Below are positions 4,764 through 59,067 of a stretch of 64,000 nt of DNA, piece by piece (within the stretch, counting starts at the first letter, position 1; each line of letters opens with the position of its first letter). Source of the DNA: Spirochaetota bacterium. Lineage in GTDB: Bacteria; Spirochaetota; UBA6919; CBDBPB01. Location: NCBI GenBank assembly GCA_965208615.1, contig CBDBPB010000001.1, forward strand, positions 160,001 through 224,000. The letters are read 5' to 3'. Below the pieces are notes generated by a model, which was not told where the DNA came from, searched no databases, and saw only the letters and a program-made list of their open reading frames with translations. Both the position numbers and the translations under genes were made by a program.

Positions 4764-7700
4764 ATGCCTAGTAGATTTTTAGAAGAATTAAATAACCGTA
4801 TACTAATTTTTGATGGTGCTATGGGTACCTCCATACAAGGATATAACCTAAAGTATGATGACTATAAAGGAAAAGATGGCTGTAATGAATATTTGGTTAT
4901 AACCAGAGCAAATATAATAAAAGAAATCCATAAAAGCTATTTAGAAGCTGGTTGCGACGTAATCGAGACTAATACATTTGGAGCCAATCGCTTTAAACTA
5001 AAAGAATATGCCCTGGATGATAAGATTTATGAAATTAATTATAAAGCATCCTGTATTGCCAGAGAAGTGGCTGATTCTTTTAGCACTAAAGAAAAACCGA
5101 GATTTGTTGTGGGATCTATCGGTCCAAGCGGATTCTTACCTTCTTCCAGTGATCCTGATTTATCTAAAGTCCAGTTTGATGAACTGGCTTATGTATTTGC
5201 AGAACAAGCAAAAGCCCTCGTTGATGGCGGAGTAGATGCACTATTAATAGAAACCAGTCAGGATATGCTAGAAGTAAAGTCTGCCATATACGGTATAAAA
5301 AAGTTTTTTAAAGAAAATGGTAATAAGCTTCCTTTAATAGTCCAGATTACCCTTGATACCTCTGGTAAAATGCTATTGGGTACTGATATTACTTCTGCTC
5401 TTACTACTATAGAGTCTATGGAAGCTGATGTCATTGGAATGAACTGTAGTACAGGTCCCAAAGACATGAGAGATCCAGCTCGTTATTTATGTGAAAATAC
5501 AAATCTAAAGATTTCTATAATACCAAATGCAGGTATCCCAGTAAATCAGGACGGAAAAGCTGTATACCTTTTAAGTCCAGATAAAATGGCTGAACAGCTA
5601 TCCGACTTTATTAAAGAGTTTGGCGTTAATATTATTGGTGGATGTTGTGGTACTAGTCCTGATCATATTAGAGAGCTTAGTAAAGCTTTTGCTACTATTC
5701 CTCCAAAACAAAGACGGGTTGATAAAAATGTTTATGTATCCAGCTCTATGAAATCTGTATGCCTTAAACAAGAGCCTAGACCTCTTATTGTTGGTGAGAG
5801 AATTAATGCACAAGGAAGCCGTAAAGTAAAACGGCTACTATTAGAAGAAGATTATCAATCTATAATAAAAATTGCCAGAGAACAGCTAAACTATGGAGCC
5901 CATATATTAGATGTATGCGTTGCAATAACCGAAAGAGATGATGAACCTGAAACAATGCAAAAACTTCTTAAGCTTTTATCTATGTCCATTGAAACCCCTG
6001 TTATGGTCGACTCTACCGATTATAACGTAGTTGAAATAGCACTCAAAAACTATGCTGGAACTATTATTGTAAACTCTATCAACTTAGAAAATGGACGAGA
6101 AAAGGCTGACAAGATTTTATCCCTTATAAATGACTATGGCGGAGCCGTGGTAGCATTAACTATAGACGAAAAAGGTATGGCAAAAACTTTAGATAGAAAA
6201 ATTGAGATATCCCAAAAGCTTTATGACATTTATGTTAATGAATACAACTTTAAGCCTGGCTCTTTGATAATAGATTTATTAACCTTCACGCTAGCTACTG
6301 GTGAAGATGAATGGAAAAACTCTGCAATAGAAACCATAAATGCAATTAAAGAAATTAAATCAAGATTCCCAAAAGTATTAACAAGCCTGGGAGTTAGTAA
6401 CTGCTCATTTGGACTAAACCCTTATGCACGTAAAATCCTTAATAGCATATATCTTTATCATAGTGTTCAGGCTGGTTTAGACATTGCTATGGTCAATCCA
6501 AAAGATATTATACCTTATCCGTCTATACCTAATAAGGAAAGGGTATTAGTAGAAAACTTAATTTTTAATCGTTCTGATAATGCACTATCCGATCTAATAG
6601 CCCATTTTGAAAAGAATGATAAACCAAAAAATAATAAGAAAACAAGCTCTAACTTACTCTCAGTTGAGGAGACCATACATAATAAAGTCCTACATAGAGA
6701 CTCAGACCAAATAGAAGAACTTTTGGATGAGGCTATGGAAAAATATAGTCCCGTTGAAGTGCTAAACAACATACTACTAAATGCTATGAAGGACGTGGGG
6801 GATAAATTCGGTACTGGTGAACTCATTTTACCATTTGTACTACAATCTGCAGAGGTCATGAAAAAGGCTGTTAACTACTTAGAAGGCTTTTTGGAAGATA
6901 AAGCTATCTCTACTAAAGCGGCAGTCTTATTGGCAACTGTATACGGCGACGTACACGATATTGGTAAAAACCTATTTAAGACTATATTAACCAATAATGG
7001 CTATGTTGTACACGATATAGGAAAGCAAGTCCCGGTTCAAACAATAATCGAAAAGGCTGTAAAACTAAAAGTGGATGCTATTGGTTTAAGTGCCTTATTG
7101 GTATCTACTTCAAAGCAGATGGCTATTTGTATAGAGGAATTATATAAAAACGGTTATAATTATCCGGTTTTGATTGGCGGTGCCGCTATAAATCAGGACT
7201 ATGGGTATAGAATTGCTTTTGTTGATGATAAAACTATTTATTCTGGTGGTGTATTTTATGGAAAAGACGTCTTTCAAGGACTAGAGATTATGGATTCCCT
7301 TTCTGATAAGGATAAAAAGCATCTTATCATAAAAGAGAACAAGGATAAAGCAATAAAATATATAGGGAAAAAAAAGAATAAGTCGAAAGTCCCTGAAGAA
7401 AAAACTATTAAAAAGTCTAATATAAATAGAGTTAATGACATACCCAATCCGCCGTTTTGGGGGACTAAAGTTATTTTAGAAAAAGACATAAATATGAATG
7501 AGCTATTTGATAACCTTAACCTTACTGAGCTTTTTAGGTTATCATGGGGTGGACGCGGTAAAAAGCTTAGTGAGTATAAGCTCCTTGTTGAAAACGAGTT
7601 TAAGCCTTTATTAAATAATCTTAAGCAATACATAAAAGAAAATAGTATTTTTAGTCCTAAAATTGTTTATGGATATTTTCCATGTTTATCCCATGAAGAC

Positions 7701-11053: not shown

Positions 11054-11443
11054 TCATACTCTTCTTCTTTTTGAAGGCCTACAACCATTATGGGGTATAG
11101 GAGTAACATCCTTAATCATAGTTATTTTTAATCCAGCATTCTTCAAAGCTCTAATTGCAGCCTCTCTACCCACACCCGGACCTTTAACTTGAACAACAAT
11201 TGATTGCAAACCATGTTCCATAGCTTTTTTAGCAGCATTCTCAGAAGTCATTTGAGCGGCAAAAGGAGTACTCTTCTTAGCACCCTTAAAACCCAGACTC
11301 CCAGCGCTAGAAGATGAAATAGAGTTACCCCTAACATCACTAACAGTTACAATAGTATTATTAAAACTAGCTTTAATATGAACTATACCTTTTACAATAT
11401 TTTTCTTTTCTTTCTTTTTGGTTTTTTTCTTTGTAGTAGCCAA
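11054..11443 (-). CDS. rpsK: 30S ribosomal protein S11
   Basis: [30 protein letters not shown]. Confidence 0.98.
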
Positions 11444-11458
11444 ATTAAAATCCCCTAA

Positions 11459-11818
11459 TTATTTTTTCTTACTACCAGATCTTTTTTTCCATGTGTTAGC
11501 ATTAGTACGGGTTCGCTGACCTCTAACAGGTAAACTCCTTCTATGCCTTAAGCCTCTATAACATCCTATTTCCATAAGACGCTTTATATTCATAGACACT
11601 TCAGTTCGCATATCACCTTCTACTTTATAATTAGAGCTAATATATTCCCTAATTTTAATTAACTGATCTTCAGATAAGTTTCTCATTTTAGTATTTATAT
11701 CAATACTTAACTCTTTAACAATCTTTTTAGCTCTAGACCTACCAATACCATAAATATATGTTAATGATATTTCTACTCGTTTATTGGATGGTAAATCAAC
11801 ACCTGCTATTCTCGCCAT
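11459..11818 (-). CDS. rpsM: 30S ribosomal protein S13
   Basis: [27 protein letters not shown]. Confidence 0.98.
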
Positions 11819-11839
11819 TATAATATTCCTTTTTACTTA

Positions 11840-11953
11840 TTATTTTTGTCTCTGTTTATGCTTAGGATTTTTACAAATAACCCTAAGTACACCTTTACGC
11901 CTTATAACCTTACACTTCTCACAAATTGCCTTTACACTAACCCTTACTTTCAT
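11840..11953 (-). CDS. rpmJ: 50S ribosomal protein L36 (not in the ORF track)
   Basis: Manual translation [37 protein letters not shown]; canonical position. Confidence 0.97.
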
Positions 11954-11968
11954 TTTTACCTCTTTACC

Positions 11969-12187
11969 TCATTTAAATCTATAAGTAATTCGTCCTCTAG
12001 ATAGGTCATAAGGTGATAGTTCAATAGTAACCCGATCACCAGGAAGAATTCGTATAAAATTCATTCTCATTTTACCTGAAATATGAGCCAAAACTTTATG
12101 TCCATTATCCAGCTCCACTCTAAACATAGCGTTCGGCAACGGCTCTAACACTTTACCTTCCACTTCTATAGCATCTTCTTTTGGCAA
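11969..12187 (-). CDS. infA: Translation initiation factor IF-1
   Basis: [31 protein letters not shown]. Confidence 0.98.
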
Positions 12188-12340
12188 TTAAAACTCCTAA
12201 AAGTTAATTTTACATAAGACTAAAAACTCTACTAGTAAACCCATAGCAAAGAGGCCAAATAAGATATTTAACTAAATATACCTCTACCTCTTATCTTACA
12301 ATAAAAAAACTTATAACTCAAAATACAAAGTTATTTTAAC

Positions 12341-13675
12341 CTATCTTCTACCTCTTAACTTACCTTTTTTCATAAAACCACTTAAATTACGAGTTAATAA
12401 ATGAGACTCTATCTGCTTAGCAGTATCTAATCCCACCCCAACCATAATCAACAACGAAGTTCCCCCCATTAAATAACGGAAATTAGGCGGTATATTCGTT
12501 GTAAACTCGTAGACTAAATCTGGAAAAATAGCAACAAATCCTAAAAAAATAGAACCAGGTAACGTTATTCTATTCAATACCTTAGATAAATAAGAAGAAG
12601 TATGAGTTCCAGGCCTTATACCTGGTATAAATCCCCCTTCTTTTTTAAGCCTGTCAGCAATCTCAACAGGATTAAAATAAATAGCAGTATAAAAATAAGC
12701 AAAAAATATAACCATAAATAAATATAAGATAATATACGGTGCATGACCAGGTGATAAATTATTAGCAATACTACTTAATGTTTCATTACCTGAACCAAAT
12801 GCCCCAATTAGATATGCAGGGAACATAATGACTGACGTAGCAAAAATTATAGGAATAACTCCACTAGGATTAATCTTAAATGGAATATGAGTAGACTGAG
12901 CTCCATACATACGATTGCCTATAACTCTTTTAGCATATTGAACAGGAATCTTTCTAGTAGCAGTTTGCTCAGCAACTACCAAACCTATTAATACAGCAAA
13001 AATAAAAAATACTATTACTAAAGTAATAGCGTTTAAATTACCATCTTTAACTGTTGTAAAAAGTTCAACTAACGACATTGGAAGACGAGCAACAATACCA
13101 GCAAAAATAAGTAAAGATACACCATTACCAATTCCTTTCTCAGTTATACGCTCTCCCAACCAAAGAAGAAACATACTACCAGTGGTCATAGTTAAAACAA
13201 AAGTCAAATAAAAACCCCAATCCATCCCACCTGGAACAACATCAGTACTTTTTGAGTAAACAGTGTTTTTTAAAAGTATTATAAGCCCAATAGATTGGAT
13301 TATACAAAGAAGAACAGTACCATATTTAGTATATAGTTCGATTTTCTTTTGTCCATAACTACCCTCTTTAGAGAGTTTATCCAACGCAGGAATTACAACT
13401 TTAAGCAACTGCATTATTATAGATGAACTAATATATGGCATAATGCCCAAAGCAAAAAGAGAAAATTGCCCCAAAGCTCCACCAGAAAAAAGATTTAATA
13501 AACCAAGAATACCTGTCTGTGAAGCTTCTCCAAAAGCCTCAAACAAAGCCGAAGGATCAATACCAGGACATGGGATTTGAGCACCAATCCTAAAAACAGT
13601 TAAGATAAATATGGTAAATAATACCCTATCCCTAAGGTCTTTAACCATAAATATATTCTTAATTACTTTAATCAT
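12341..13675 (-). CDS. secY: Preprotein translocase SecY
   Basis: FALGIMPYISSSII, GIGNGVSLLIFAGI, FIPGIRPG, GGTSLLI. Confidence 0.98.
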   Translation of the reverse strand: MIKVIKNIFMVKDLRDRVLFTIFILTVFRIGAQIPCPGIDPSALFEAFGEASQTGILGLLNLFSGGALGQFSLFALGIMPYISSSIIMQLLKVVIPALDKLSKEGSYGQKKIELYTKYGTVLLCIIQSIGLIILLKNTVYSKSTDVVPGGMDWGFYLTFVLTMTTGSMFLLWLGERITEKGIGNGVSLLIFAGIVARLPMSLVELFTTVKDGNLNAITLVIVFFIFAVLIGLVVAEQTATRKIPVQYAKRVIGNRMYGAQSTHIPFKINPSGVIPIIFATSVIMFPAYLIGAFGSGNETLSSIANNLSPGHAPYIILYLFMVIFFAYFYTAIYFNPVEIADRLKKEGGFIPGIRPGTHTSSYLSKVLNRITLPGSIFLGFVAIFPDLVYEFTTNIPPNFRYLMGGTSLLIMVGVGLDTAKQIESHLLTRNLSGFMKKGKLRGRR

Positions 13676-38805: not shown

Positions 38806-39849
38806 TTAACAACAAGCACCACCCACATTATCCAATAGCTGTCCATTAGGAGAAGAACAGTCAAAAGGCCCATAATGAATAGACCTATCCCCAACTATAT
38901 TAAAATATTTTGTAAACCTAGTTTCATGAAGCATAGAAGCTGTATTACCACATACCAACATAGGCTTACCAGTGATAAATCTATGGTGATCATCTAAGTC
39001 AAAAAAATGTGGACAGTTATCTATTAAACCATTATAGGTAGCAACTTGTCCATAGTCCTCACAAATATCCTCAAGATTAACAAGATTAAATACCCTTATA
39101 GTCATGGAATAAAAATCAATCATACCTATTTTATCTTCAATCTCCTTATTGTTAAGAGAAAGCCTTGTACTAGATATTACACGATGATCAGGACAGCCTA
39201 AATCCATAAGTAAACGTCTAAAATCCTCTGTATACATAGCTCCAGAAAGACATTCCCCATATAAAACAGGATCATCACAATACTCTTTTGGAATCCGCCT
39301 ACCACTAAAAATATCAGAAAAGTATAACTCTCCTCCAGGCTTTAAAACACGAAATATCTCTTTAAAAGCCTCTTTTTTATCATAAGAAAGATTTAATACA
39401 CAATTGGATATAACCACATCAACTGAATTATCCTCAATACCAATAGACCTTAAATCTTCAATATATCCTTTTTTAAAAGTAACATTAGGCTTTTTAAATC
39501 CAAAACGCTTTGTCTGAAGGTCTAAATACTTATTAGCCACAGCCAATTGTTCATCTGTCATATCCACCCCAATAACATGACCACTCTCACCAACTAACTT
39601 AGAAATAATATAAACATCTCTACCAGTTCCACAACCAAGATCAAGAACAACTCTTCCATCTAATACATCGGGTATAGGTGAACCACAACCATAAAACTTA
39701 TCCAATACCTCTCTCTCTATATTCGATAGAATATTACGAATATGTAAAGGAAAACCATCGCTAGAACAACATGCACTGGTCTTAAGCTCTTCTTTGTTTT
39801 TAAGTATTTTTCCATAATATTCTTTTATATCTTCCCTAATTTTACTCAT
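38806..39849 (-). CDS. arsM: Arsenite S-adenosylmethionine methyltransferase (AS3MT/CmArsM-like)
   Basis: KTSACC, FYGCGSP, VLDLGCGTG, VISNCVLNL, YGECLSGA (all four conserved Cys positions), CEDYGQ, C-terminal CC. Confidence 0.88.
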   Translation of the reverse strand: MSKIREDIKEYYGKILKNKEELKTSACCSSDGFPLHIRNILSNIEREVLDKFYGCGSPIPDVLDGRVVLDLGCGTGRDVYIISKLVGESGHVIGVDMTDEQLAVANKYLDLQTKRFGFKKPNVTFKKGYIEDLRSIGIEDNSVDVVISNCVLNLSYDKKEAFKEIFRVLKPGGELYFSDIFSGRRIPKEYCDDPVLYGECLSGAMYTEDFRRLLMDLGCPDHRVISSTRLSLNNKEIEDKIGMIDFYSMTIRVFNLVNLEDICEDYGQVATYNGLIDNCPHFFDLDDHHRFITGKPMLVCGNTASMLHETRFTKYFNIVGDRSIHYGPFDCSSPNGQLLDNVGGACC

Positions 39850-39899: not shown

Positions 39900-40700
39900 C
39901 TAATTAGCCTTTTTACCCAACATTAGAGGATGAATAGCCTTAGTAAATAAAATAGAAGCTAATACTCCACCAACTAATGGACCCAATACATATACACTCA
40001 AAAAACCATAATGATTATCAGGAAATGATGCACTGCCCCATCCAGCTAAATATGAAAATAGTCTAGGGGACAAATCTCTAGCGGGATTAATACCAGCTTG
40101 AGTTAAAGGGGCTATAACACAAATAATAATAGATACAGTAAGGCCTATAAACAAAGGTGCAATTGAATTATCAGGCCTACCAACATTACAGCATTCTGTT
40201 AAATTAAAAATTAATGCCACCAAAACAAAAGTACCAATAGCCTCAGCCAAAAAGGCATTCAAAGTTGATACAACAGCTGAACTACCAGGATTAGGATAAA
40301 ACTCCCCAAACATCATAGCAGTCTTAACAGAATCTGGAGTCCCTCTAATAATTCCATTTTGAAGCTCATACTGAGCAATTGAATCAGCAAAAAGAACATA
40401 AAGTATTGCCGATGCAATAAAAGCACCTATAAACTGTCCCAAAAAATATATAGGGAGTAATTTAATAGGCATTCTCCCACTAGTTACCATAGCCAAAGTT
40501 ACCGCAGGATTAAGATGTGCACATGATAAATGTCTGGTAGAATAAATAGCAAGGGCAACACCTACACCCCAAATAGCAGCAACCTGAAAAAGACCTACAT
40601 GAGCAGAAAATAAAACAGATACCACTACTGAACCACATCCAAAAAATACTAAAATAAACGTTCCTATTAGCTCTCCCATAAGGTCATTTAGGTGCTTCAT
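39900..40700 (-). CDS. MIP-family aquaglyceroporin, probably co-transcribed with arsM
   Basis: HLNPAVT and INPARD (glyceroporin-type D after the second NPA); GGAG RBS before ATG 40700; 50 bp gap to arsM. Confidence 0.9.
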   Translation of the reverse strand: MKHLNDLMGELIGTFILVFFGCGSVVVSVLFSAHVGLFQVAAIWGVGVALAIYSTRHLSCAHLNPAVTLAMVTSGRMPIKLLPIYFLGQFIGAFIASAILYVLFADSIAQYELQNGIIRGTPDSVKTAMMFGEFYPNPGSSAVVSTLNAFLAEAIGTFVLVALIFNLTECCNVGRPDNSIAPLFIGLTVSIIICVIAPLTQAGINPARDLSPRLFSYLAGWGSASFPDNHYGFLSVYVLGPLVGGVLASILFTKAIHPLMLGKKAN

Positions 40701-41035
40701 ACTAATATTTCTCCACAATTAAAAACTAACTTATATATACTTTATAAAAAAGTAAATAACGTTATCTTTAATTAGGATAAAATGTAAATAATTTATCTAA
40801 AAAATCAAGAATAAATTATAAACATAAAGAAATTATTAATCAATAAGCTATATCATAAGCGGTGCTATTTATAAATATATCTACTAATAATAAGCATAAT
40901 AACCAATACTAAAACTTTTATTATAAATTATACTATCCCATAACTAATAAAAATATATACATAATAAACCTATTTAATATACTTGTCATTATATGTTTTT
41001 TATATTAAATAGGCTATAATATATATAAGCAAAAA

Positions 41036-49879: not shown

Positions 49880-50668
49880 TTATACCCCTTGAAAACCTTT
49901 ATAAAGACGGTAAGCCTCTAATAGTATATCATAAAATGACTTCGAAGCCGCAGAATTATAAAATAATCTAAGAGAAGTAAAATTGCTATTAGGCTGTCTA
50001 TAAAGATATAAAATTAGAACGTTTATAGCAATTTGTTTAAGAGGTCCAGCTTTTATATATTTGTGGGAAGATACACTAACATATTTATGAATAATACATA
50101 CCCTCTTTTTCGAGTAGGCTTTTACTAAAAAATCAGAATAACAAATATCCTCCATAAAATGCTTAGAAAAAGGATTTTTTATACATATATCCCGTCTCAT
50201 AAACATAGCATTAGTACCCGCCATCCGTTTTAAAAAAATCGCTCTAATATTGGCCATCTTTGCAGTTATACCAAAGAAAAAAGATGGATTATAACGTTTT
50301 AAAAAACCTCCAGCAATATAATTTTCATTTTCCATAGCCTTAGAAATATATCTTAATGCGTTATCTGGTAAAGTATTATCCACATGCAGTATTAGCAGTA
50401 TATCCCCTTTTGCCTGCTTAATACCTAGGTTTATAGACTGTCCTCTGGTTAAGGGATCATAATCAGTAACGCTTAAAACTACTTTTAGCTCTACCTTGCT
50501 ATCATTGAAAAGATCCGTAATATTATTTAATATCTTAGGAAAATAACTCTTTTCTGCATCCGAAAAGATTAGTTCACACGGGTAGTCCTGAGAAATAAGG
50601 CTTTTTATTAAGGGTATAAGCTTTTCTATTTTCGGTCTGTAGGTTGGAACAATTATAGAAATCAACAT
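49880..50668 (-). CDS. GT2 glycosyltransferase resembling the TIGR04283 family
   Basis: ISIIVPT, RGQSINLG..AKGDILLILHVD..LP, AGGF, AMFMRR, FMED, VSS.KY. Confidence 0.65.
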   Translation of the reverse strand: MLISIIVPTYRPKIEKLIPLIKSLISQDYPCELIFSDAEKSYFPKILNNITDLFNDSKVELKVVLSVTDYDPLTRGQSINLGIKQAKGDILLILHVDNTLPDNALRYISKAMENENYIAGGFLKRYNPSFFFGITAKMANIRAIFLKRMAGTNAMFMRRDICIKNPFSKHFMEDICYSDFLVKAYSKKRVCIIHKYVSVSSHKYIKAGPLKQIAINVLILYLYRQPNSNFTSLRLFYNSAASKSFYDILLEAYRLYKGFQGV

Positions 50669-50847: not shown

Positions 50848-51474
50848 TTAGACTTCTATAAAACTCTTTGTAAACTTTGCAAACTCGCGATAAAAAGCTA
50901 ATTCTGCGTTAGAAATAACCTTATCACAAAAGCCATTTATCCACTTAGATAAATGCTCATTTATAAACTTTAGCTCTAACTCCTTACATTCTTTGGCTTT
51001 GCTTTCATTTTTATTCGACCAAGCCTTAGATTCCTCTTTTGTTATTTCTTTTAAGAACTCCAGTTCAACACTAATATGGTCATCTAAACCTGTATAATTA
51101 TGTTTATAGCTAAAACCACAAACTTCAATAAACCTCTTAACTTTAACAGCCGATTCTCCAAGTAATGATTTATCAACATGAACAGATTCGCTTGGGTTAA
51201 TATGTTTATCAGGCCCAATAAATAGCTTGGTATATTCTAGTGACAGCTCCTCAAGAAGTATGGATTCAGGTTTATTAAGGAAATCTTCATCCAGGTTAAC
51301 ATCCAAGCTGGATAAGGTCATCAAAAAATGATGATCCCTTATTTTTCGGATAAGAACACTATCCGGCTCATTAAAAAATATAATAGCTAAAAGTCCGTAT
51401 ATATTGCTACGAGCACTAGCCTCTGAAGCAAGTGTTTCCCAATTAACTTCTTGTTTAATATTCATAGTTAGCAA
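50848..51474 (-). CDS. TorD/DmsD-family molybdoenzyme maturation chaperone
   Basis: EYTKLFIGP..P.ESV, DHISVELEF, F..EHL..W. Confidence 0.92.
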   Translation of the reverse strand: MLTMNIKQEVNWETLASEASARSNIYGLLAIIFFNEPDSVLIRKIRDHHFLMTLSSLDVNLDEDFLNKPESILLEELSLEYTKLFIGPDKHINPSESVHVDKSLLGESAVKVKRFIEVCGFSYKHNYTGLDDHISVELEFLKEITKEESKAWSNKNESKAKECKELELKFINEHLSKWINGFCDKVISNAELAFYREFAKFTKSFIEV

Positions 51475-51527: not shown

Positions 51528-54209
51528 TTATACTTTTTCAACCTTAACAACACTATCCATCCACCTCTGCTGTCCATTAAGAGGGTCTGGAGAGTTAGCT
51601 ATCAACCAATTAGGATGCGCACCAAATCCATCAACCCACTTTCCATCATTAGTCTTTTGTCTACCTTTTGCCCACCATCTTCTATCATTAACGTCAGCGT
51701 CAGAGATAACCTTAGAATCTATTTCGCTATGATTCTTTCCTGATGCAGTCCGTCCATACTGCCAATGTCCAAGATGATATGATATGGCTATAACACCAGG
51801 GGTAATAGACTCTGTAACATGAGCCTTTGTAATAACTCCATCCGACTTAACATTAGGATTTGTTAACTTAATCATATCGCCATGTTTAATACCCTTTTCT
51901 GCCGCAGTCTTAGAGTTTATCCATGCTGGATTCTCATGATATATCTCAGTTAACCACTTACAGTTTGCAGTCCTTGAGTGAGTATGAACATTCACCTTAT
52001 AAGTTGTTAACATAAGCTCATCAGCCTTTTTATTTTTATGCTCAGGAATCTCCATATAAGTAGGCATTGGGTTTTCGCCTTTAAGCTCAAGAAGATCAGA
52101 GTAAATCTCAAGATATCCAGACTTGTTAACAGCATCAGGGTTAAAGCCTTTATAAAGCTTATCCCCTATCTTCTGGGCAACATAACCCTTATATGCCTTT
52201 TTAGTCTTTGTATAACCTTTTGATCTTGCCTCTTCAGCGCTATTAGCCTTAGACTTATGCCAGTTCCAATATACGCCTGTTTTCTGATCAAAGATTACAC
52301 CATCTTTTCTGGTCTCTTCAGCACTAATTTCTATTTTGTATCTATAATAACCAGGGGCTGGTTTATCTAATTTAGCAGAAGGATCGTCATGCCAAACACC
52401 ACCACGCTTTTTCATATACTCAAAAGGATCTTCACCTACCTTTTTAGCCGCCTCCACAACCTCTTTGGTTTTATGACATGACTTCTTAACAAAGTCTTCT
52501 TTACTAGTAACTCCCCCTATATCTAGATTCATCATTTTTGCAAGATCACATACAACATCACCAAAGTCCCTTGACTCACCTAAAGGCTTAATAAGAGGTT
52601 GACGAATATAATGCTCCCCTATTTGAGTTGGGGATACCATATCTTCCCAGTCCCACCTTTCAAGATAGGTAGCATCAGGTAAGATTAAGTCCGCTAATGA
52701 AGTGGACTCACTATAAAAAGGGTCTATGGCAACAGTAAATGGTAAAAGCTTCTCATCTTTCAATACATCAATATTCTCCTGGCACTCACCATTAACATAA
52801 ACAGGGTTATAACAGTACCACATATACAAATCAGGTCTACCAAACTCCTTGCCATAATCCTTAATCATCTTAAAAACCCAATGGCTCATGTGATGAGTAG
52901 GAAAAGCAGCATAACCCTTATGCCCTTTTTCAGGGTGACCATCTACAATCTTAAGACCCTTACCCTTAGGTGGATTCTTAGGCTTAGGATAACTCCAACC
53001 AGAACCAACTCCCTTACACCTACCACCAGGATTATCAATATTACCTGTTATACCAGCAAGAGTCTGAGCAGCTCGTTCAGCCTCATTCCCATTATAATGA
53101 GCAATTGCACCCCTATAAGTTATTAAACAAGCAGGCTTTGTTGTAGCAAACTCCTTAGTTAATGACACTATCTTTGAAGCAGGTACACCGCTAATCTTTG
53201 ATGCCCACTCTGGTGTATACTTAGCAAAGTGACTCTTTAACGCTGCTATCTTTTCGTCCACTGTGTTTTGAGCCTGGTTTGTAACCTTCATAAACTTTAT
53301 AAAATCTCTATCATAAAGGTTATTCTCCATAACAACATTACACATGGACAGAAGAATAGCACAATCAGACCCAGGCTTTACAGGAACCCACTCAGATGAC
53401 CTTGCAGCTGTGTTAGAAAGCCTAACATCAAAAGTTACCATCCTAACTCCCCTATTACTCATGGCATCAGCTATCCTCTGAGCAACAGGTATATGATTAG
53501 TGTGAGTCTCAAAAATATTACTACCAAAGTTTAACATAAACTGTGTATGATCCGCATCCCAGTTGTCATAATGACCACCCCATGTTAACTCCTGAGAAGA
53601 CCACTTTCCGCCCTCACAAATGGATGTGTGATTACCAATAGTCTTAGTGCCATAAGCAGTCAAAAAACTACCCTTTATTATCTTACTAGAGCTAGCCTTC
53701 ATCCGTCCATAATGAAACATAAACTTAGCAGGATTATCAGCCCTTATTTCCTTAAGGCCTTTAACATGCTTACCATCTCGCTCATAACCATCCACAAGGA
53801 CCTTAAGAGCCTCTTTCCATGATAGCTTTTTCCACTTACCTTCACCACGCTTACCAGTCCTAAGCATAGGATATAATATCCTATCTGGATCATAAACCTG
53901 ATTTATACCAGCCTGACCCTTAGCACATATCTTACCCCTTCCCCTTTGAGAGTGAACTTGTCCCTCAAGCTTAACTAACCGACCGTCCTCTATGTAACCA
54001 ACCATAGAATCCCTTGTAACGCAAGACCAACAAGAAGTAGGTATCATCTTACGCTCGCCTTTAACCGAAAAATCTTTGTTACCCTTTTTAAAACTAGTCT
54101 TTATCTCTTTAGCCTCTAATACACCTTGCCCGGTAGCAACCAATGCTGCAGAAGCGGCACCCAGTTTTAAAAAATTACGTCTATCAATAGCTTTATTATC
54201 TGTTTTCAT
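51528..54209 (-). CDS. Tat-exported DMSO-reductase-family Mo/W-bisPGD catalytic subunit (TtrA/SrdA-like)
   Basis: RRNFLK Tat motif; CWSCVTRD...KICAKG FS0 region; NHTSICE; ADLILPDATYLERWD; HSRT; C-terminal PGD-binding domain. Confidence 0.88.
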   Translation of the reverse strand: MKTDNKAIDRRNFLKLGAASAALVATGQGVLEAKEIKTSFKKGNKDFSVKGERKMIPTSCWSCVTRDSMVGYIEDGRLVKLEGQVHSQRGRGKICAKGQAGINQVYDPDRILYPMLRTGKRGEGKWKKLSWKEALKVLVDGYERDGKHVKGLKEIRADNPAKFMFHYGRMKASSSKIIKGSFLTAYGTKTIGNHTSICEGGKWSSQELTWGGHYDNWDADHTQFMLNFGSNIFETHTNHIPVAQRIADAMSNRGVRMVTFDVRLSNTAARSSEWVPVKPGSDCAILLSMCNVVMENNLYDRDFIKFMKVTNQAQNTVDEKIAALKSHFAKYTPEWASKISGVPASKIVSLTKEFATTKPACLITYRGAIAHYNGNEAERAAQTLAGITGNIDNPGGRCKGVGSGWSYPKPKNPPKGKGLKIVDGHPEKGHKGYAAFPTHHMSHWVFKMIKDYGKEFGRPDLYMWYCYNPVYVNGECQENIDVLKDEKLLPFTVAIDPFYSESTSLADLILPDATYLERWDWEDMVSPTQIGEHYIRQPLIKPLGESRDFGDVVCDLAKMMNLDIGGVTSKEDFVKKSCHKTKEVVEAAKKVGEDPFEYMKKRGGVWHDDPSAKLDKPAPGYYRYKIEISAEETRKDGVIFDQKTGVYWNWHKSKANSAEEARSKGYTKTKKAYKGYVAQKIGDKLYKGFNPDAVNKSGYLEIYSDLLELKGENPMPTYMEIPEHKNKKADELMLTTYKVNVHTHSRTANCKWLTEIYHENPAWINSKTAAEKGIKHGDMIKLTNPNVKSDGVITKAHVTESITPGVIAISYHLGHWQYGRTASGKNHSEIDSKVISDADVNDRRWWAKGRQKTNDGKWVDGFGAHPNWLIANSPDPLNGQQRWMDSVVKVEKV

Positions 54210-54224
54210 TCAATCCCCCTATCC

Positions 54225-55118
54225 TTAAGAAAAAAGTTGACCGCCAATTACGAAGGTATAACGAAATAAAAAACCTCCGATCAATAACAATATTGAACTT
54301 ACAATAAGTATTGAAGAACTCTGCTCTTCACCATTCTTCTCTTTGTAGTGTGTAAATATCCCAAGAAGTAAAGGTATAATAAGGCCTAGAACCATAACTC
54401 CTCCCCAAAAAACTAAACCAAAACTACTGTTAAAAGCACCAACAGCATGAATTGAATTACCATGATTAAGAGTTAACATCCAAAGCAAGAAAAGAAGAAT
54501 CTCAGAAATAATAGCAAGATTCAAAATTGTACTGGATGACTTTTTAATAGAAGCGTATAAGCCTCTTGTATTCTCTTTTAGGTTAAGAACTAATGTAACC
54601 GCAGCTAAACCAGTTATAATAACACTAATTACTGTAATCATAGTTGTTGGGCCTTGAGTCCAAAGAACCTTGCCCTCAACATTAGAAAATAAATATCCAT
54701 CAAAGCTGCCTATTATAAGAGCAAATGGAACACCAATATAACCTATCATCTTTCTAAGTTTGTCATTATCCTTATAATAAAAGAATGCGTGCATTAACGC
54801 TAAAGGAAAATAGAAAAACTGAGCCCATGCCTTCCATGAAAGAGGAGACATAAGATTAAGTCCACCCGTAAAAAATCTAAACATACGGAAAGGTTTTCCA
54901 AGTTCCATAAATAAGAACAAAAAGCCTATTATAATAGATATAGGGGCAATATAAGCAGCTATCTTAGCTGTATTTTTATACTTGTCCTTATAATAGGTGC
55001 TTATAAAAATAGAAAAAAGAAAAGCCCCAACAGAAATACCGCCAAAATATATATCAGCGGCAATACGCCAATCCCAATATACACGATGAAAAACATCGTA
55101 AAAAACTGTATTATCCAT
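54225..55118 (-). CDS. NrfD/PsrC/TtrC-like membrane anchor
   Basis: WDWRIAADIYFGG, ELGKPFR, SPLSW, GGFLFRY; about 8 TM helices. Confidence 0.9.
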   Translation of the reverse strand: MDNTVFYDVFHRVYWDWRIAADIYFGGISVGAFLFSIFISTYYKDKYKNTAKIAAYIAPISIIIGFLFLFMELGKPFRMFRFFTGGLNLMSPLSWKAWAQFFYFPLALMHAFFYYKDNDKLRKMIGYIGVPFALIIGSFDGYLFSNVEGKVLWTQGPTTMITVISVIITGLAAVTLVLNLKENTRGLYASIKKSSSTILNLAIISEILLFLLWMLTLNHGNSIHAVGAFNSSFGLVFWGGVMVLGLIIPLLLGIFTHYKEKNGEEQSSSILIVSSILLLIGGFLFRYTFVIGGQLFS

Positions 55119-55133
55119 AATTTTTCTCCTTAT

Positions 55134-55838
55134 TTAAAGAACTACTTCTTTTTGCTTGTAAAAAGTTTCACTACGCTCCATGTCAATATAAAAAACCCTG
55201 GGCATAGTTCCAGCAAACTCTTTATCCACAGTAACAGCATTTTTGGAGACAATCTTAGATATCTCACTATTTGGATCGTTTAAATCACCAAAAACCCTTG
55301 CTCTTGGCGGACAAGTATTAACACAAGACGGCTCTACGCCATTTACAACCCTATCCACACAAAAATCACACTTGCTAGCTACCTGCTTATCTGGGTGAAT
55401 AAATCGCTTATCATAAGGGCAATTTATAACACAATATTTACACCCAACACAAACATCATCACTAACCACTACTATACCATCATCTCTTTGATAAGTAGCA
55501 CCTGTTGGACAAACAGATACGCAAGACGGCTTTTTACAATGATTACATAAAACAGGAAGGAAGTTCCTCTTAGTATCTGGAAATTTACCCTTCTCAGATA
55601 CCTTTACCCAACTCCTCCATACTCCTAATGGAACATCATATTGTGCCTTACAAGCCACACTACAACTATGACACCCATAACACTTTTTTAAATCAATAAC
55701 CATACCATAACGTGGCCCAGTGGTAGTGTGTTCTTGACTTGCAGTACAACTTACTACACTATAACTAGCTACGGCAACGGCTGACTTTTTGATAAAACCT
55801 CTTCTGTTAATAGGTTTATCAACTGAGTTCTCTGGCAT
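55134..55838 (-). CDS. 4x[4Fe-4S] electron-transfer subunit with Tat signal (TtrB/SrdB/NrfC-like)
   Basis: RRGFIK; CYGCHSCSVAC, CNHC..PSCVSVCP, CVGCKYCVINCP, KCDFC...CVNTCP. Confidence 0.93.
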   Translation of the reverse strand: MPENSVDKPINRRGFIKKSAVAVASYSVVSCTASQEHTTTGPRYGMVIDLKKCYGCHSCSVACKAQYDVPLGVWRSWVKVSEKGKFPDTKRNFLPVLCNHCKKPSCVSVCPTGATYQRDDGIVVVSDDVCVGCKYCVINCPYDKRFIHPDKQVASKCDFCVDRVVNGVEPSCVNTCPPRARVFGDLNDPNSEISKIVSKNAVTVDKEFAGTMPRVFYIDMERSETFYKQKEVVL

Positions 55839-55908: not shown

Positions 55909-55942
55909 ATAAATTGTTAGTTTATATAAACTGACAATTTAT
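55909..55942. promoter_or_regulatory. 34-bp near-perfect palindrome upstream of the Mo-enzyme operon
   Basis: ATAAATTGTTAGTTTATATAAACTGACAATTTAT (one mismatched pair). Confidence 0.4.
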
Positions 55943-56274: not shown

Positions 56275-59067
56275 GTGAGTATGACCAAATATAAAGTTGA
56301 ACATGAATATCTTAAGTCATTATTAAATGATATATTAGAAGAACAAATTGGTAGTTGTCTCTATAAAAAAATTAGTAGCCTAATAAATAGATGTACTACC
56401 ACTAAAAATAGCCTGATTAATAAAGAAAATGACTTACTAAACCAAAATACACTTAGTAGTAAAGAGCTTTTACACTGCCTTGAGGATCTGGATAATGATA
56501 CTATATTTGCTTTAGTCCACAGCTACAATATATATTTCCAACTTATCAATATTGCAGAGGATATATTCTACCATCATCAAGATCAAGAGAAACTTAAGTC
56601 TGAGGCTATGGTAGGGGATTCCATTATTAATTGTATTAGCTCCATTAAAGATAAAGGAATAGCAAAAGATAAACTAAAAAAACTAATTAAAAATATTGAA
56701 ATAACTCCCGTTATAACCGCTCATCCTACCGAAGCTAAAAGACAAACTAATCTGCAAAAACATTTAAAGATTTATAAATACCTTATGAATATGACTTCTT
56801 ATCCACACAGTAAACACGAACTGGACAACTTAAGAAAACTAATTCTAGTCGAAATACAAAAACTATGGCAAACCGGTGATATTAGACTAGAAAAACCCAC
56901 TGTTATACAAGAAGTACATAATATGCTGTTCTACTTTGATAAAGTGTTTTATAACGTAATCGACCTAATATATAAAGAACTGGAAGACAGCCTTAATGAC
57001 TACTATAAAGATACTAAATTCGATATTACATCATTCCTAAAATTCGGATCATGGGTAGGAGGAGATAGAGACGGTAATCCTAATGTTACTACTGCTATCA
57101 CAAGAGAAACTCTTAAACTACATAAAGAACTAATATTAAAAAAATATATATCCTCTATCAACCAGCTGATAGAAGATTTTAGTCAGTCTAAATATCTAAC
57201 ACCACATTCTAATATTCTACATGAATCCCTAAATGAGGATATTAAACTATTCTCAAAAGAAAGTGAAAGTATAATTAATCGTAATCCCCATGAACCATTT
57301 AGAATGAAATTAGCTTTTATCTCTAAAAAACTTAATAATACCCTATTAAATAACGCTAATAAAGATAAATTCATTTCCCAGTCCTACCATAGTCCAGATG
57401 ACTTTCTAGACGATCTATTAAAACTAAGAAAAGGATTATTAGAGTCTAACGGACTACGATTAGCACAAGTTGAACTTGATCCGTTTATTAGAAAAGTAAA
57501 AGTATTTGGTTTTCATCTTGCAAAGCTGGATATTCGCCAACATAGTGAACGACATCATCTAGCCCTTAGTGAGATATTTAACGAACTAAATATTTATTAT
57601 AACTATATTAACCTTCATCACAATGAAAAAATAAAAATACTAACCCACGAGCTTAACTCTAAAAGACCTCTAATACCCTGCTACTTAAGCTTTTCAAAAG
57701 ATACCACAGAGAGCTTTTCTATTTTTAAAGAAATGCTTTATCTCAAAAAAGAAATCAGTAAGGACTGCTTAGCTAGCTATATAATTAGTATGACCCATGA
57801 TATAAGTGATTTACTTGCTGTTCAGCTATTGGCTAAAGAAGCTGGGTTATGCGGAGAAAGCGATAATGAACAAAAGTATTTTAGCTATATAGATATTGTT
57901 CCCCTTTTTGAAACCATAGAAGACTTAAGACTAGCACACATAATAATGGAACAGGCTTTTAATAATCCATCATACAGAAAAAACCTAAATGCAAGAAATA
58001 ACATACAAGAGATTATGATCGGATATTCAGATAGCAACAAAGAAGGAGGTATTATTGCCTCTAATTGGGAACTACATCAAACTCAAAAAAGACTAACCGA
58101 GATGTCCGATAAATATAATATTCATTTGAAGCTTTTTCATGGTAGAGGTGGAACAATTAGTAGAGGAGGTAGTGACTACTCAGGCAAGGCTATTGCATCA
58201 CAACCAGAGGGTACAATAAAGGGTAAAGTTAAAATGACTGAACAGGGTGAAGTTCTGTCTTATAAATACTCATATAACCATACTGCAATTATAAGGCTGG
58301 GACTACTCGTATCTAATGTTATATCCTCTACTCTAAATATATCCCGAAAGAGTCCGTCTAGGATAAAGGACTATGAAACTGCACTTGATAAAATATCCAA
58401 GTACGGCTATTCATATTATCGTAAGCTTATTGATAATCCTAATTTTTTTAAATATTTTAAAGAGGCTACCCCATTTAATGAAGTTACCCTTTTAAAACTT
58501 GGTTCTCGTCCAGCTAAAAGAAAGAATAGTGATGAACTAAGTGATATTAGAGCTATTCCATGGGTATTTAGCTGGACACAAAGTCGTCATTTACTTTCTG
58601 GATGGTATTCTATTGGTTATGCAATAAACAAGTTTATTAAAGAGGATCCAGAAAAACATAAGGCACTATTAACAGAGATGTTTGATAAGTGGTTGTTTTT
58701 CCAAATACTAATAGAAAACGTTGTTATGAACCTTGTTAAAACTGATATGGATATTGCTAAAAATTATGCATCCATAGTCAGTGACAACAAAGTAAAAGAA
58801 GTTTATGATATTATAAAAAAGGAGCATGATCTTACTGTTGACGTCATTCTATTGATTAAAAACCAAGATAAGCTATTATTGGATAGTTCTTCGTTAAAGA
58901 AGTCCATTGACCTAAGAAAACCATATATTGATTTTATTAACCATATACAGATTATCTTATTGCAAAGATTAAGAAAGAATAGCAATCTAGCTAAGGATCA
59001 AAACTTTATTAATCTAATATTGCGGACAATTAACTGTATTGCTGCTGGTATGAGAAATACTGGTTAA
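56275..59067 (+). CDS. ppc: Phosphoenolpyruvate carboxylase (bacterial type)
   Basis: VITAHPTE, GGDRDGNP, QEIMIGYSDSNKEGG, FHGRGG, RAIPWVFSWTQSR, GMRNTG. Confidence 0.97.
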   Translation: MSMTKYKVEHEYLKSLLNDILEEQIGSCLYKKISSLINRCTTTKNSLINKENDLLNQNTLSSKELLHCLEDLDNDTIFALVHSYNIYFQLINIAEDIFYHHQDQEKLKSEAMVGDSIINCISSIKDKGIAKDKLKKLIKNIEITPVITAHPTEAKRQTNLQKHLKIYKYLMNMTSYPHSKHELDNLRKLILVEIQKLWQTGDIRLEKPTVIQEVHNMLFYFDKVFYNVIDLIYKELEDSLNDYYKDTKFDITSFLKFGSWVGGDRDGNPNVTTAITRETLKLHKELILKKYISSINQLIEDFSQSKYLTPHSNILHESLNEDIKLFSKESESIINRNPHEPFRMKLAFISKKLNNTLLNNANKDKFISQSYHSPDDFLDDLLKLRKGLLESNGLRLAQVELDPFIRKVKVFGFHLAKLDIRQHSERHHLALSEIFNELNIYYNYINLHHNEKIKILTHELNSKRPLIPCYLSFSKDTTESFSIFKEMLYLKKEISKDCLASYIISMTHDISDLLAVQLLAKEAGLCGESDNEQKYFSYIDIVPLFETIEDLRLAHIIMEQAFNNPSYRKNLNARNNIQEIMIGYSDSNKEGGIIASNWELHQTQKRLTEMSDKYNIHLKLFHGRGGTISRGGSDYSGKAIASQPEGTIKGKVKMTEQGEVLSYKYSYNHTAIIRLGLLVSNVISSTLNISRKSPSRIKDYETALDKISKYGYSYYRKLIDNPNFFKYFKEATPFNEVTLLKLGSRPAKRKNSDELSDIRAIPWVFSWTQSRHLLSGWYSIGYAINKFIKEDPEKHKALLTEMFDKWLFFQILIENVVMNLVKTDMDIAKNYASIVSDNKVKEVYDIIKKEHDLTVDVILLIKNQDKLLLDSSSLKKSIDLRKPYIDFINHIQIILLQRLRKNSNLAKDQNFINLILRTINCIAAGMRNTG

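Follow-up and report, generated by a model that had tools for sequence, protein, structure and literature searches.

An uncharacterized B-C-A-TorD molybdoenzyme operon with a conserved FS0 aspartate in a probable Spirochaetota genome

Operon layout and subunits

A 64,000-nucleotide stretch of contig CBDBPB010000001.1 (hereafter the window; coordinates count from its first letter) carries an operon for a predicted periplasmic molybdenum- or tungsten-dependent (Mo/W) oxidoreductase. The operon comprises four minus-strand open reading frames (ORFs) in the order B-C-A-TorD-like, all intact and in the same orientation, with gaps of 15, 15 and 53 bp between B and C, C and A, and A and the chaperone gene, respectively (Table 1). 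A Shine-Dalgarno-like AAGGAG precedes B. The catalytic subunit A contains the Pfam domains Molybdopterin (PF00384, 1.9e-30), Molydop_binding (PF01568, 3.1e-15) and Molybdop_Fe4S4 (PF04879, 5.7e-06). Together with the four-cluster ferredoxin subunit B and the anchor C, these domains identify a complex iron-sulfur molybdoenzyme (CISM) of the dimethyl sulfoxide (DMSO) reductase, or MopB, superfamily. The AlphaFold2 model of A has a mean predicted local distance difference test (pLDDT) value of 78 and a predicted template modeling (pTM) score of 0.82.

The ORFs, Pfam matches, translation and DNA bear out what the initial annotation reported: the order B-C-A-TorD of the genes, a twin-arginine translocation (Tat) motif in each of A and B, and an Asp where the FS0 cluster motif would have its third Cys. 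The strings that this annotation quotes (CWSCVTRD, FHYGRMK and NHTSICEGGKW) and the codon GAT are exact in A. Its coordinates, 51528-55838, span B, C and A and leave out the chaperone gene. The Pfam TAT_signal match on A scores 20.7 bits, slightly below the cut-off of 22.7. The Tat signal of B (residues 1-30, 55749-55838, minus strand) terminates in a lipobox-like VVSC, and B of the Spirochaetia homolog (locus L001, 6315-7004) also has a Cys directly past the hydrophobic region; judging from these sequences, B may be a Tat-exported lipoprotein in both organisms. At 893 aa, A exceeds most family members (about 843 aa) by some 50 residues. The extra length is partly a low-confidence segment near the C terminus (residues ~817-862, pLDDT <50 at 822-862), and the Spirochaetia homolog of A is likewise long (913 aa in the protein database).

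Table 1 Coordinates of the operon, its motifs and its flanking genes in the window, and of rquA genes near A in related loci (locus coordinates; one of the eight scores 174.6 bits)
Feature	Position	Strand	Details
B subunit	55838..55134	-	234 aa; Fer4_11 7e-26 (Pfam); 4 Cys groups, 16 Cys, predicted to hold four [4Fe-4S]
Twin-arginine motif of B, NRRGFIK (residues 11-17)	55788..55808	-	translation
C subunit, NrfD/PsrC-type heme-free quinol-interacting membrane anchor (predicted)	55118..54225	-	297 aa; NrfD 5e-30 spanning 11-296 (Pfam)
A subunit, Tat-exported Mo/W-bis-pyranopterin guanine dinucleotide (bisPGD) catalytic subunit (predicted)	54209..51528	-	893 aa
Twin-arginine motif of A, DRRNFLK (residues 9-15)	54165..54185	-	translation
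FS0 segment, C60-x2-C63-x3-D67-x27-C95	53925..54032	-	Asp codon GAT 54011..54009
FHYGRMK, A residues 165-171	53697..53717	-	aligns with ArrA (R/K)GRY and ArxA xGRGWG
NHTSICEGGKW, A residues 193-203	53601..53633	-	C198, predicted Mo/W ligand
TorD/NarJ-family maturation chaperone	51474..50848	-	208 aa; Nitrate_red_del 1e-23 (Pfam); 53 bp 3' of A
Phosphoenolpyruvate carboxylase gene (ppc)	56275-59067	+	divergent from operon
Family-2 glycosyltransferase	49880-50668	-	179 bp 3' of chaperone
rquA, locus L004	10527-11294		
rquA, locus L040	11383-12204		
rquA, locus L048	6891-7634		
rquA, locus L077	12058-12936		
rquA, locus L070	12283-13017		
rquA, locus L062	5111-5926		
rquA, locus L064	952-1959		
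rquA, locus L024	3804-4877		

A conserved aspartate in the FS0 motif

The canonical FS0 pattern C-x2-C-x3-C-x(n)-C is not matched in A. Its third position is occupied by Asp67, while the other three Cys (C60, C63 and C95) are kept, and no further Cys occurs across residues 50-110. The string CWSCVTRD is encoded by tgt tgg tct tgc gtt aca agg gat, whose last codon, GAT, differs from TGT and TGC at two bases. Of the 120 best database matches (58-65% identical to A, the window's own protein aside), 86 carry Asp at the aligned position and 34 carry Cys. We also compared genomic loci. The family was located at 218 places in species-representative genomes, and the analyses rest on 80 of these, all from genomes other than the window's own. 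The motif could be read in 71 (31 Asp and 40 Cys, or 32 and 40 with the window) after five N-terminally truncated genes, three loci lacking a full A and L061, where the pattern matched elsewhere, were dropped. The non-Cys residue is always Asp (86/86 database matches; 32/32 family rows) and never Ser, Ala or Gly. The closest relative also carries Asp, as do the neighboring lineages represented by P0123, P0131, P0140, P0147, P0148, P0137, P0158, P0207 and P0191.

Since Asp is conserved in the relatives, it is not a chance or sequencing feature. The possibility of a sequencing error, raised in the initial annotation, or of an assembly error or a decaying gene is negligible, given the two substitutions that separate GAT from a Cys codon, the four intact ORFs and the Asp of the relatives. 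Nor is the feature peculiar to the window organism, since the large family to which A belongs spans many phyla and Asp recurs in neighboring lineages. The three-Cys-plus-Asp FS0 is thus a conserved character. A full-text motif search found the C-x2-C-x3-D variant of FS0 in no paper.

The distribution of Asp was traced on a family tree of 72 rows including the window (IQ-TREE, short search), which splits the family into two halves, one without and one with an NrfD gene. The NrfD-less half, mostly metagenome-assembled genomes (MAGs) of Desulfobacterota and Nitrospirota, holds 28 Asp and 5 Cys rows and one further Asp row with its upstream region cut off. In the NrfD half, a small Asp group formed by the window, a Spirochaetia MAG and a Hydrothermarchaeaceae MAG (Shimodaira-Hasegawa-like approximate likelihood ratio test, SH-aLRT, 88) has 35 Cys rows of Alpha- and Gammaproteobacteria as its sister group (SH-aLRT 100). 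At least four changes between Asp and Cys are required on this tree, and only four independent pairs, too few for any statistical power, bear on an association of Asp with the loss of NrfD. One of the seven rows scored as Cys without NrfD, L052, does have NrfD and was misclassified by an ORF-calling artifact. Asp predominates in lineages named after strict anaerobes and Cys in Proteobacteria, which raises the possibility that the Cys form is the sturdier one; speculatively, it may be a more robust derivative of the Asp form.

We infer that Asp67 ligates the cluster in place of the fourth Cys. By analogy with other protein families, such a ligand may tune the potential of FS0 or give a cluster convertible between 3Fe and 4Fe forms. 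Asp-ligated clusters, for example that of Pyrococcus furiosus ferredoxin, interconvert readily between the two forms. An alternative that we consider possible, on the unlikely side, is that Asp67 is no ligand and that FS0, instead of being an Asp-ligated [4Fe-4S] cluster, is a [3Fe-4S] cluster bound by three Cys, which would be compatible with any substrate. Arsenite oxidase AioA has such a three-Cys [3Fe-4S] cluster. The FS0 domain of A has only three Cys, and the available text of PMC10100899 ascribes a high-potential [3Fe-4S] cluster to the related ActB. However, Ser, Ala or Gly would be expected if the position were merely vacated, whereas the replacement is exclusively Asp and recurs in other lineages.

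A lineage separate from the Ttr-like and Arr/Arx-like enzymes

None of the four proteins reaches the cut-off of a curated NCBIfam model. A scores 325 bits with PhsA (cut-off 694), 263 with a DmsA subfamily (778), 168 with ArrA (1600) and 136 with TtrA (1750), and YnfE/F and other models are likewise missed. B scores 200 bits with TtrB (cut-off 416), 198 with DsrO and 195 with NrfC, all below cut-off; C is far below with NrfD (66 bits) and TtrC (22 bits, cut-off 314), and the chaperone gives 61 bits, below cut-off, with the TorD model. By these scores, B and C are no closer to TtrB and TtrC than to DsrO, NrfC and NrfD. The 61 cluster representatives scanned, out of 150 listed, also fail to reach any curated cut-off. 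The best solved relatives of A by sequence are Thermus PsrA (2vpw, 2e-48) and Shewanella ArrA (6cz7, 2e-46), and the same two enzymes are joint best in a Foldseek search with the AlphaFold2 model (both E 1.5e-38, 21-22% identity). Matches in the ESM Atlas are to generic molybdopterin oxidoreductase clusters only.

For phylogenetic placement, 50%-identity representatives and family members were combined with annotated plasmid references, namely Klebsiella ttrA, E. coli phsA and dmsA, the arx-type genes of Sulfuricella pSCD and Cereibacter pORIO3, the Citrobacter arsenatis B-C-A cluster and Azoarcus KH32C. The Sulfuricella pSCD cluster is described as arx in the available part of PMC6549141, and the ArrA-type representatives P0210 and P0225 were recognized by their LRGRY motif. 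The clade with the FHYGRMK motif is monophyletic (support 1.00 in FastTree and 100 in IQ-TREE) and joins the Azoarcus sequences in a broader lineage that has no name (SH-aLRT 89-99). In the IQ-TREE topology, a 52-row clade (SH-aLRT 99) is a trichotomy of Ttr-like sequences (93), Arr/Arx-like sequences (100) and the 33-row lineage that contains the window (89). Both trees place the PhsA group outside these three lineages, and the Ttr-like clade excludes the window lineage (7 rows, SH-aLRT 100; 9 rows, 93). This topology accords with a remark of Wells et al., which may concern the same lineage. A is not nested in TtrA in either tree, and its close homologs mostly have Asp rather than a third Cys. 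The likeness to ttrBCA and srdBCA proposed in the initial annotation thus extends to gene order but not to sequence, which forms a separate lineage co-equal with the Ttr-like and Arr/Arx-like ones; the enzyme is uncharacterized, as that annotation had it, with no characterized family above a curated cut-off. We hold the architecture and the separate lineage with high confidence. The family is large (3016 proteins at E <= 0.001 among 8000 scored) and is known almost only from MAGs of Desulfobacterota, Alpha- and Gammaproteobacteria and Nitrospirota.

The complex shares different traits with different known systems. Like ArrAB(C) and ArxAB(C), it has a catalytic subunit with a Tat signal, a predicted Cys-ligated Mo-bisPGD and an N-terminal FS0, and a TorD-type chaperone. 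It differs from them in its gene order (B-C-A versus A-B(-C), or B2-A-B-C-D in the arx clusters L082 and L086), in the low identity to ArrA (about 21%) and in the FS0 position, which is Cys in the ArrA chain and in both ArxA sequences. TtrBCA, as annotated on a Klebsiella plasmid, has the same B-C-A order, Tat signals on A and B, an NrfD-type anchor and a Cys metal ligand. However, A is about 130 residues shorter than TtrA (893 versus 1021 aa), and no TtrS/TtrR gene neighbors the window operon. The B-C-A order of SrdBCA is matched by name only, the operon name appearing in a title in the reference list of PMC7331816. Psr and Phs share the three-subunit plan, with a heme-free NrfD/PsrC anchor in Psr, and Thermus PsrA superposes on the model of A with a TM-score of 0.78 normalized to the target. 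In contrast to A, they have a four-Cys FS0, the order A-B-C in phs and 22% identity.

The nearest relative found in a cultured organism is the A protein of Azoarcus sp. KH32C (plasmid pAZKH; 37.8% identity across 99% of the window's A), which is annotated simply as 'molybdopterin-dependent oxidoreductase'. It belongs to the same broad lineage and has the B-C-A-TorD order, a C-x2-C-x3-D FS0 and the pattern NHTS-x-C-E-x2-K. Unlike the window operon, it has a KYGRNR motif, and its neighbors are arsA, an ACR3 gene for arsenite efflux and a divergent X-S-R system (PhnD-like/histidine kinase/sigma-54). A mention of KH32C in PMC10128142 concerns a methyltransferase and is irrelevant here. A separate observation concerns the Citrobacter arsenatis LY-1 plasmid (L084, 4184-9579), on which a Ttr-lineage B-C-A cluster directly adjoins arsRDABC. 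Its annotation goes no further than DsrO, hypothetical protein and molybdopterin-dependent oxidoreductase, and plasmids of Citrobacter, Salmonella, Enterobacter and E. coli carry near-identical copies. Two other candidates were rejected as equivalents, as far as the partial sources describe them: the Thioalkalivibrio 'alternative arsenite oxidation' enzyme is cytoplasmic and SoeABC-like, and the antimonite oxidase NaoABC resembles NapA and includes a Rieske subunit.

Active-site motifs

ArrA residues are numbered as in the accessible text of PMC13685797, where RGRY is 163-166 and other active-site residues are 189, 193, 198 and 210; the offset of 40 was derived from RGRY at chain positions 123-126 in the 6cz7 alignment. 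In the HMMER alignment of A with ArrA, Y167-G168-R169-M170 lies opposite R163-G164-R165-Y166, and H194, C198, K202 (across a one-residue gap) and Y214 lie opposite H189, C193, K198 and Y210. A thus resembles ArrA in the His, Cys, Lys and Tyr and in the Gly-Arg of the motif. These paired residues are invariant or nearly so in a 40-sequence family alignment, in which G168, R169, M170 and K171 are invariant. In pairwise alignments, Gly-Arg is present in ArxA, the ArrA-type representatives, several Ttr-like sequences and the Azoarcus protein and is absent from PhsA. Thermus PsrA has neither the Arg nor the Lys of the active-site set in the HMMER alignment, and it also lacks the His four residues ahead of Cys.

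(R/K)GRY is given as the ArrA motif in the portions seen of PMC13685797 and PMC6549141. A has YGRM at the aligned positions, and YGRMKA in place of the ArxA motif xGRGWG. FHYGRMK is therefore neither ArrA-type nor ArxA-type, as had been noted from the translation. Judged by these residues, the active site looks like those of oxyanion-handling lineages with a motif of its own, which does not identify the substrate.

In the Azoarcus-related group, some representatives (P0137, P0158, P0207, P0172, P0171, P0188 and P0251) have no metal-ligand Cys, and some of these are also missing Cys residues of FS0. By analogy, these proteins may be non-catalytic derivatives. ActB and QrcB are non-catalytic derivatives.

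Genomic context of the relatives

For the 80 loci, up to 8 kb per side were examined, and the 888 flanking ORFs were clustered and the cluster representatives annotated. Two architectures occur. One is the B-C-A-TorD type of the window, and the other is a B-A-TorD type whose B is longer, at about 284 aa, and which has no NrfD gene beside it. A TorD-like homolog follows A in 57 of the 80 loci. One multiheme cytochrome gene precedes the B-A-TorD genes in 33 loci and a second one follows them in 21. Further neighbors of this type are a separate NrfC/NrfD pair and genes for a receiver protein (19 loci), a HAMP/sigma-54 activator (14 loci) and a PhnD-family binding protein. Since the NrfD-less loci lie amid multiheme cytochromes, electrons seem to be delivered to these enzymes by cytochromes and not directly from an anchor. 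In L005, L022, L033, L054 and other B-A-TorD loci, the cytochrome genes are large, and the NrfC/NrfD pair is sometimes accompanied by a cytochrome b561-like gene. Of other neighbors, L015 carries an MsrP-type molybdoenzyme (414 bits, passing the cut-off) and a phosphate-selective porin at 4837-5895 and 11356-12834, and L029, from an archaeal MAG, carries a low-molecular-weight-phosphatase (LMWP)-type ArsC-like phosphatase and a PhoU-domain protein at 300-710 and 810-1814.

The gene for a rhodoquinone biosynthesis methyltransferase, rquA, lies within 8 kb of A in 7 of the 35 NrfD-type proteobacterial loci (280-312 bits, cut-off 175), and an eighth locus scores 174.6 bits. At four loci the gene shares the strand of A and lies 4 bp to 1.5 kb 3' of it. 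Rhodoquinone is a low-potential quinone made by ubiquinone-containing bacteria for anaerobic reductases. The linkage suggests that these members of the family are rhodoquinol-dependent molybdoenzymes, and it is the best evidence for a reductive direction and an acceptor of modest potential. As judged by titles, no paper on a linkage between rquA and a molybdoenzyme was found.

A PhnD-family periplasmic binding protein is encoded at 17 loci by clustering and at 18 of 80 by phmmer, together with sigma-54 activators. It shares 35-41% identity with the ArxX proteins of two arx clusters and shows no significant match to TtrS; the Azoarcus X protein, for comparison, reaches 52% identity with Sulfuricella ArxX. 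These ArxX-like proteins and sigma-54 regulators beside the window's relatives are shared with ArxA systems. They may be taken to indicate that the enzyme works oxidatively, passing electrons from arsenite or a reduced sulfur compound to the quinone pool, because X-S-R type regulators with ArxX are of the type found with arsenite oxidase. Arr and Arx are bidirectional in vitro according to the accessible part of PMC13685797, and the Azoarcus motif KYGRNR recalls the SGRN(R/Q)G given there for Methanoperedens ArxA. We consider this oxidative direction quite improbable, since the rquA linkage argues for a low-potential quinol donor and the xGRGWG motif is absent; moreover, many carriers are strict anaerobes by name (Desulfobacterales, Syntrophobacterales) and would have no obvious high-potential acceptor.

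The same context bears on two other substrate classes. The enzyme might reduce inorganic sulfur compounds (tetrathionate, thiosulfate or polysulfide) as Ttr, Phs and Psr do, and serve the respiration or disproportionation of sulfur intermediates in sediments and oxygen-deficient waters. PhsA is the top curated model for A, Thermus PsrA is the best PDB match by sequence and joint best by structure, and the gene order is that of the annotated ttrBCA. The family is also abundant in Desulfobacterota, Nitrospirota and sulfur-cycle habitats according to record titles, some members are labeled thiosulfate or polysulfide reductase in the source databases, and the low-potential quinol suggested by rquA would fit sulfur acceptors too. 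On the other hand, the curated cut-offs are missed widely, the clade lies outside the PhsA and Ttr-like groups, and PsrA and PhsA have no Gly-Arg at the motif position. The associated binding proteins are ArxX-like rather than TtrS-like, and clustering of the flanking ORFs, with annotation of the representatives, revealed no conserved sulfur-carrier family. Taken together, a sulfur substrate is doubtful, although it has to be taken seriously.

A metalloid oxyanion other than arsenate (selenite, selenate, antimonate or tellurate) is improbable in our estimation. The three related lineages jointly span sulfur, arsenic and selenium substrates in the sections seen of PMC7331816 and PMC10100899, the motif of A is a third variant beside those of Arr and Arx, and the binding proteins score 87-91 bits with a putative selenate-binding model, whose cut-off is 250. 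However, no selenium- or antimony-specific gene is conserved among the flanking-ORF clusters and their annotated representatives. Selenate is a high-potential acceptor, and its reduction would not need the rhodoquinol to which the rquA linkage points.

Neighborhood and origin of the window operon

The G+C content of the window is about 30%. For A, B and C alike, the closest relatives come from 'Spirochaetia bacterium UBA6919' (A 63% identical), which is sister to the window (SH-aLRT 99) and whose NrfD scores 259 bits, against at most 86 for all other loci. The best match of the window's PyrG is a 'Spirochaetota bacterium' protein at 73%, the only named one above 63%, and the other named matches (58-63%) come from Spirochaetota, Bacillota and Omnitrophica. 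For EF-G, unnamed matches reach 78-80% and named ones about 70% from several phyla, leaving the phylum unresolved. The spirochaete origin deemed probable in the initial annotation is thus moderately supported by the operon relatives and PyrG but not by EF-G, and on these matches the window organism is a probable member of Spirochaetota.

Several features around the operon are recorded as leads. The glycosyltransferase downstream of the chaperone gene weakly resembles the TIGR04283 arsenosugar-cluster glycosyltransferase (93 bits, cut-off 182) and no homolog of it accompanies the operon in any of the 80 related loci. Adjacent genes for an ArsM-like S-adenosylmethionine-dependent methyltransferase (38806-39849, minus strand) and a MIP-family channel (39900-40718, minus strand) lie at a distance of about 11 kb. 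The methyltransferase scores 185 bits with an arsenite methyltransferase subfamily model whose cut-off is 263, and similar methyltransferases (E < 1e-6) are encoded near L001 and L003. From their sequence likeness, these three genes serve as leads only. The AT-rich 436-bp intergenic region common to B and ppc contains an imperfect 24-base palindrome with one mismatch (55914-55937, minus strand), about 75 bases 5' of the B start, with no regulator gene adjacent; the palindrome may be an operator. A promoter scan gave 20 sites against a shuffle mean of 27.6 and hence no excess, and neither promoter nor terminator scans gave anything interpretable.

Discussion

The evidence tips slightly in favor of a CISM-type oxyanion reductase of a separate lineage that is fed by quinol through an Asp-ligated FS0. 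The enzyme likely works in the reductive direction, with a quinol as the probable donor. For the acceptor, a chalcophile oxyanion with a modest redox potential is most likely. Since ArxX-like proteins, rquA and the ars-flanked Azoarcus cluster occur among the relatives, their context points to an oxyanion reductase fed by low-potential quinol. Arsenate is the leading single candidate, which we name tentatively.

In the proposed mechanism, the TorD-like chaperone would retain apo-A in the cytoplasm until Mo/W-bisPGD is inserted. A and B would then be exported in folded form via Tat and dock at the periplasmic face of the NrfD-type anchor C. C would oxidize a low-potential quinol, presumably menaquinol in the window organism; in the text seen of PMC13685797, Arr correlates with menaquinone and Arx with ubiquinone. 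Electrons would travel along the four [4Fe-4S] clusters of B, reach FS0 of A (Cys60, Cys63, Cys95 and Asp67) and continue to the Cys198-ligated metal, where the acceptor would be reduced in the periplasm.

Several observations weigh against a quinol-fed oxyanion reductase, and against arsenate in particular. ArrA Tyr166 and Arg163 are replaced by Met and Tyr in A, the pairing of K202 with ArrA K198 requires a one-residue gap that MAFFT does not reproduce, and the combination of His-x3-Cys and Gly-Arg also occurs in Ttr-like enzymes and thus does not single out arsenate. Classical ars genes lie near only 5 of the 80 loci (ACR3 in L006 and L037; LMWP-type ArsC in L029, L044 and L066; ArsR in one locus). 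The rquA linkage is confined to the Cys-type proteobacterial branch and is not found in the Asp-type branch of the window. No ArxX-like gene, binding protein or regulator flanks the window operon itself, and PhnD-family binding proteins with 35-41% identity need not share a ligand. Both placement trees are approximate (FastTree, 142 rows; IQ-TREE short search with LG+G4, 71 rows), built on a sequence set that excludes SrdA, AnrA, Wolinella PsrA, SrrA and the Pyrobaculum enzyme. A search for biochemical data on any family member found none.

A bolder proposal, which we regard as possible though unlikely, is that the family, distributed worldwide, ranks beside Arr/Arx, Ttr/Srd and Psr/Phs as a fourth lineage of respiratory molybdoenzymes for chalcophile oxyanions. 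It would be characterized by the FHYGRMK motif and the Asp-FS0, perhaps ancestral and reverted to Cys in oxygen-exposed Proteobacteria, would draw on menaquinol or rquA-supplied rhodoquinol and would carry out a respiratory reduction with which no enzyme family has yet been credited. If true, it could provide, for example, a second and widespread route of arsenate or antimonate respiration, carried by marine Desulfobacterota, Proteobacteria of oxygen-deficient zones, Nitrospirota, an archaeal lineage and Spirochaetota.

MopB-superfamily enzymes set which sulfur, arsenic and selenium compounds microbes respire. The thousands of metagenomic relatives of A without an assigned substrate therefore represent a gap in reading anaerobic metabolism from the genomes of sediments and oxygen-deficient waters. 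The conserved replacement of Cys by Asp in the cluster supplying electrons to the metal amounts to a natural experiment on how electron transfer is tuned, and a linkage of rquA with a molybdoenzyme would extend the known uses of rhodoquinone. For the window organism, a probable member of Spirochaetota, the operon would mean quinone-linked anaerobic respiration.

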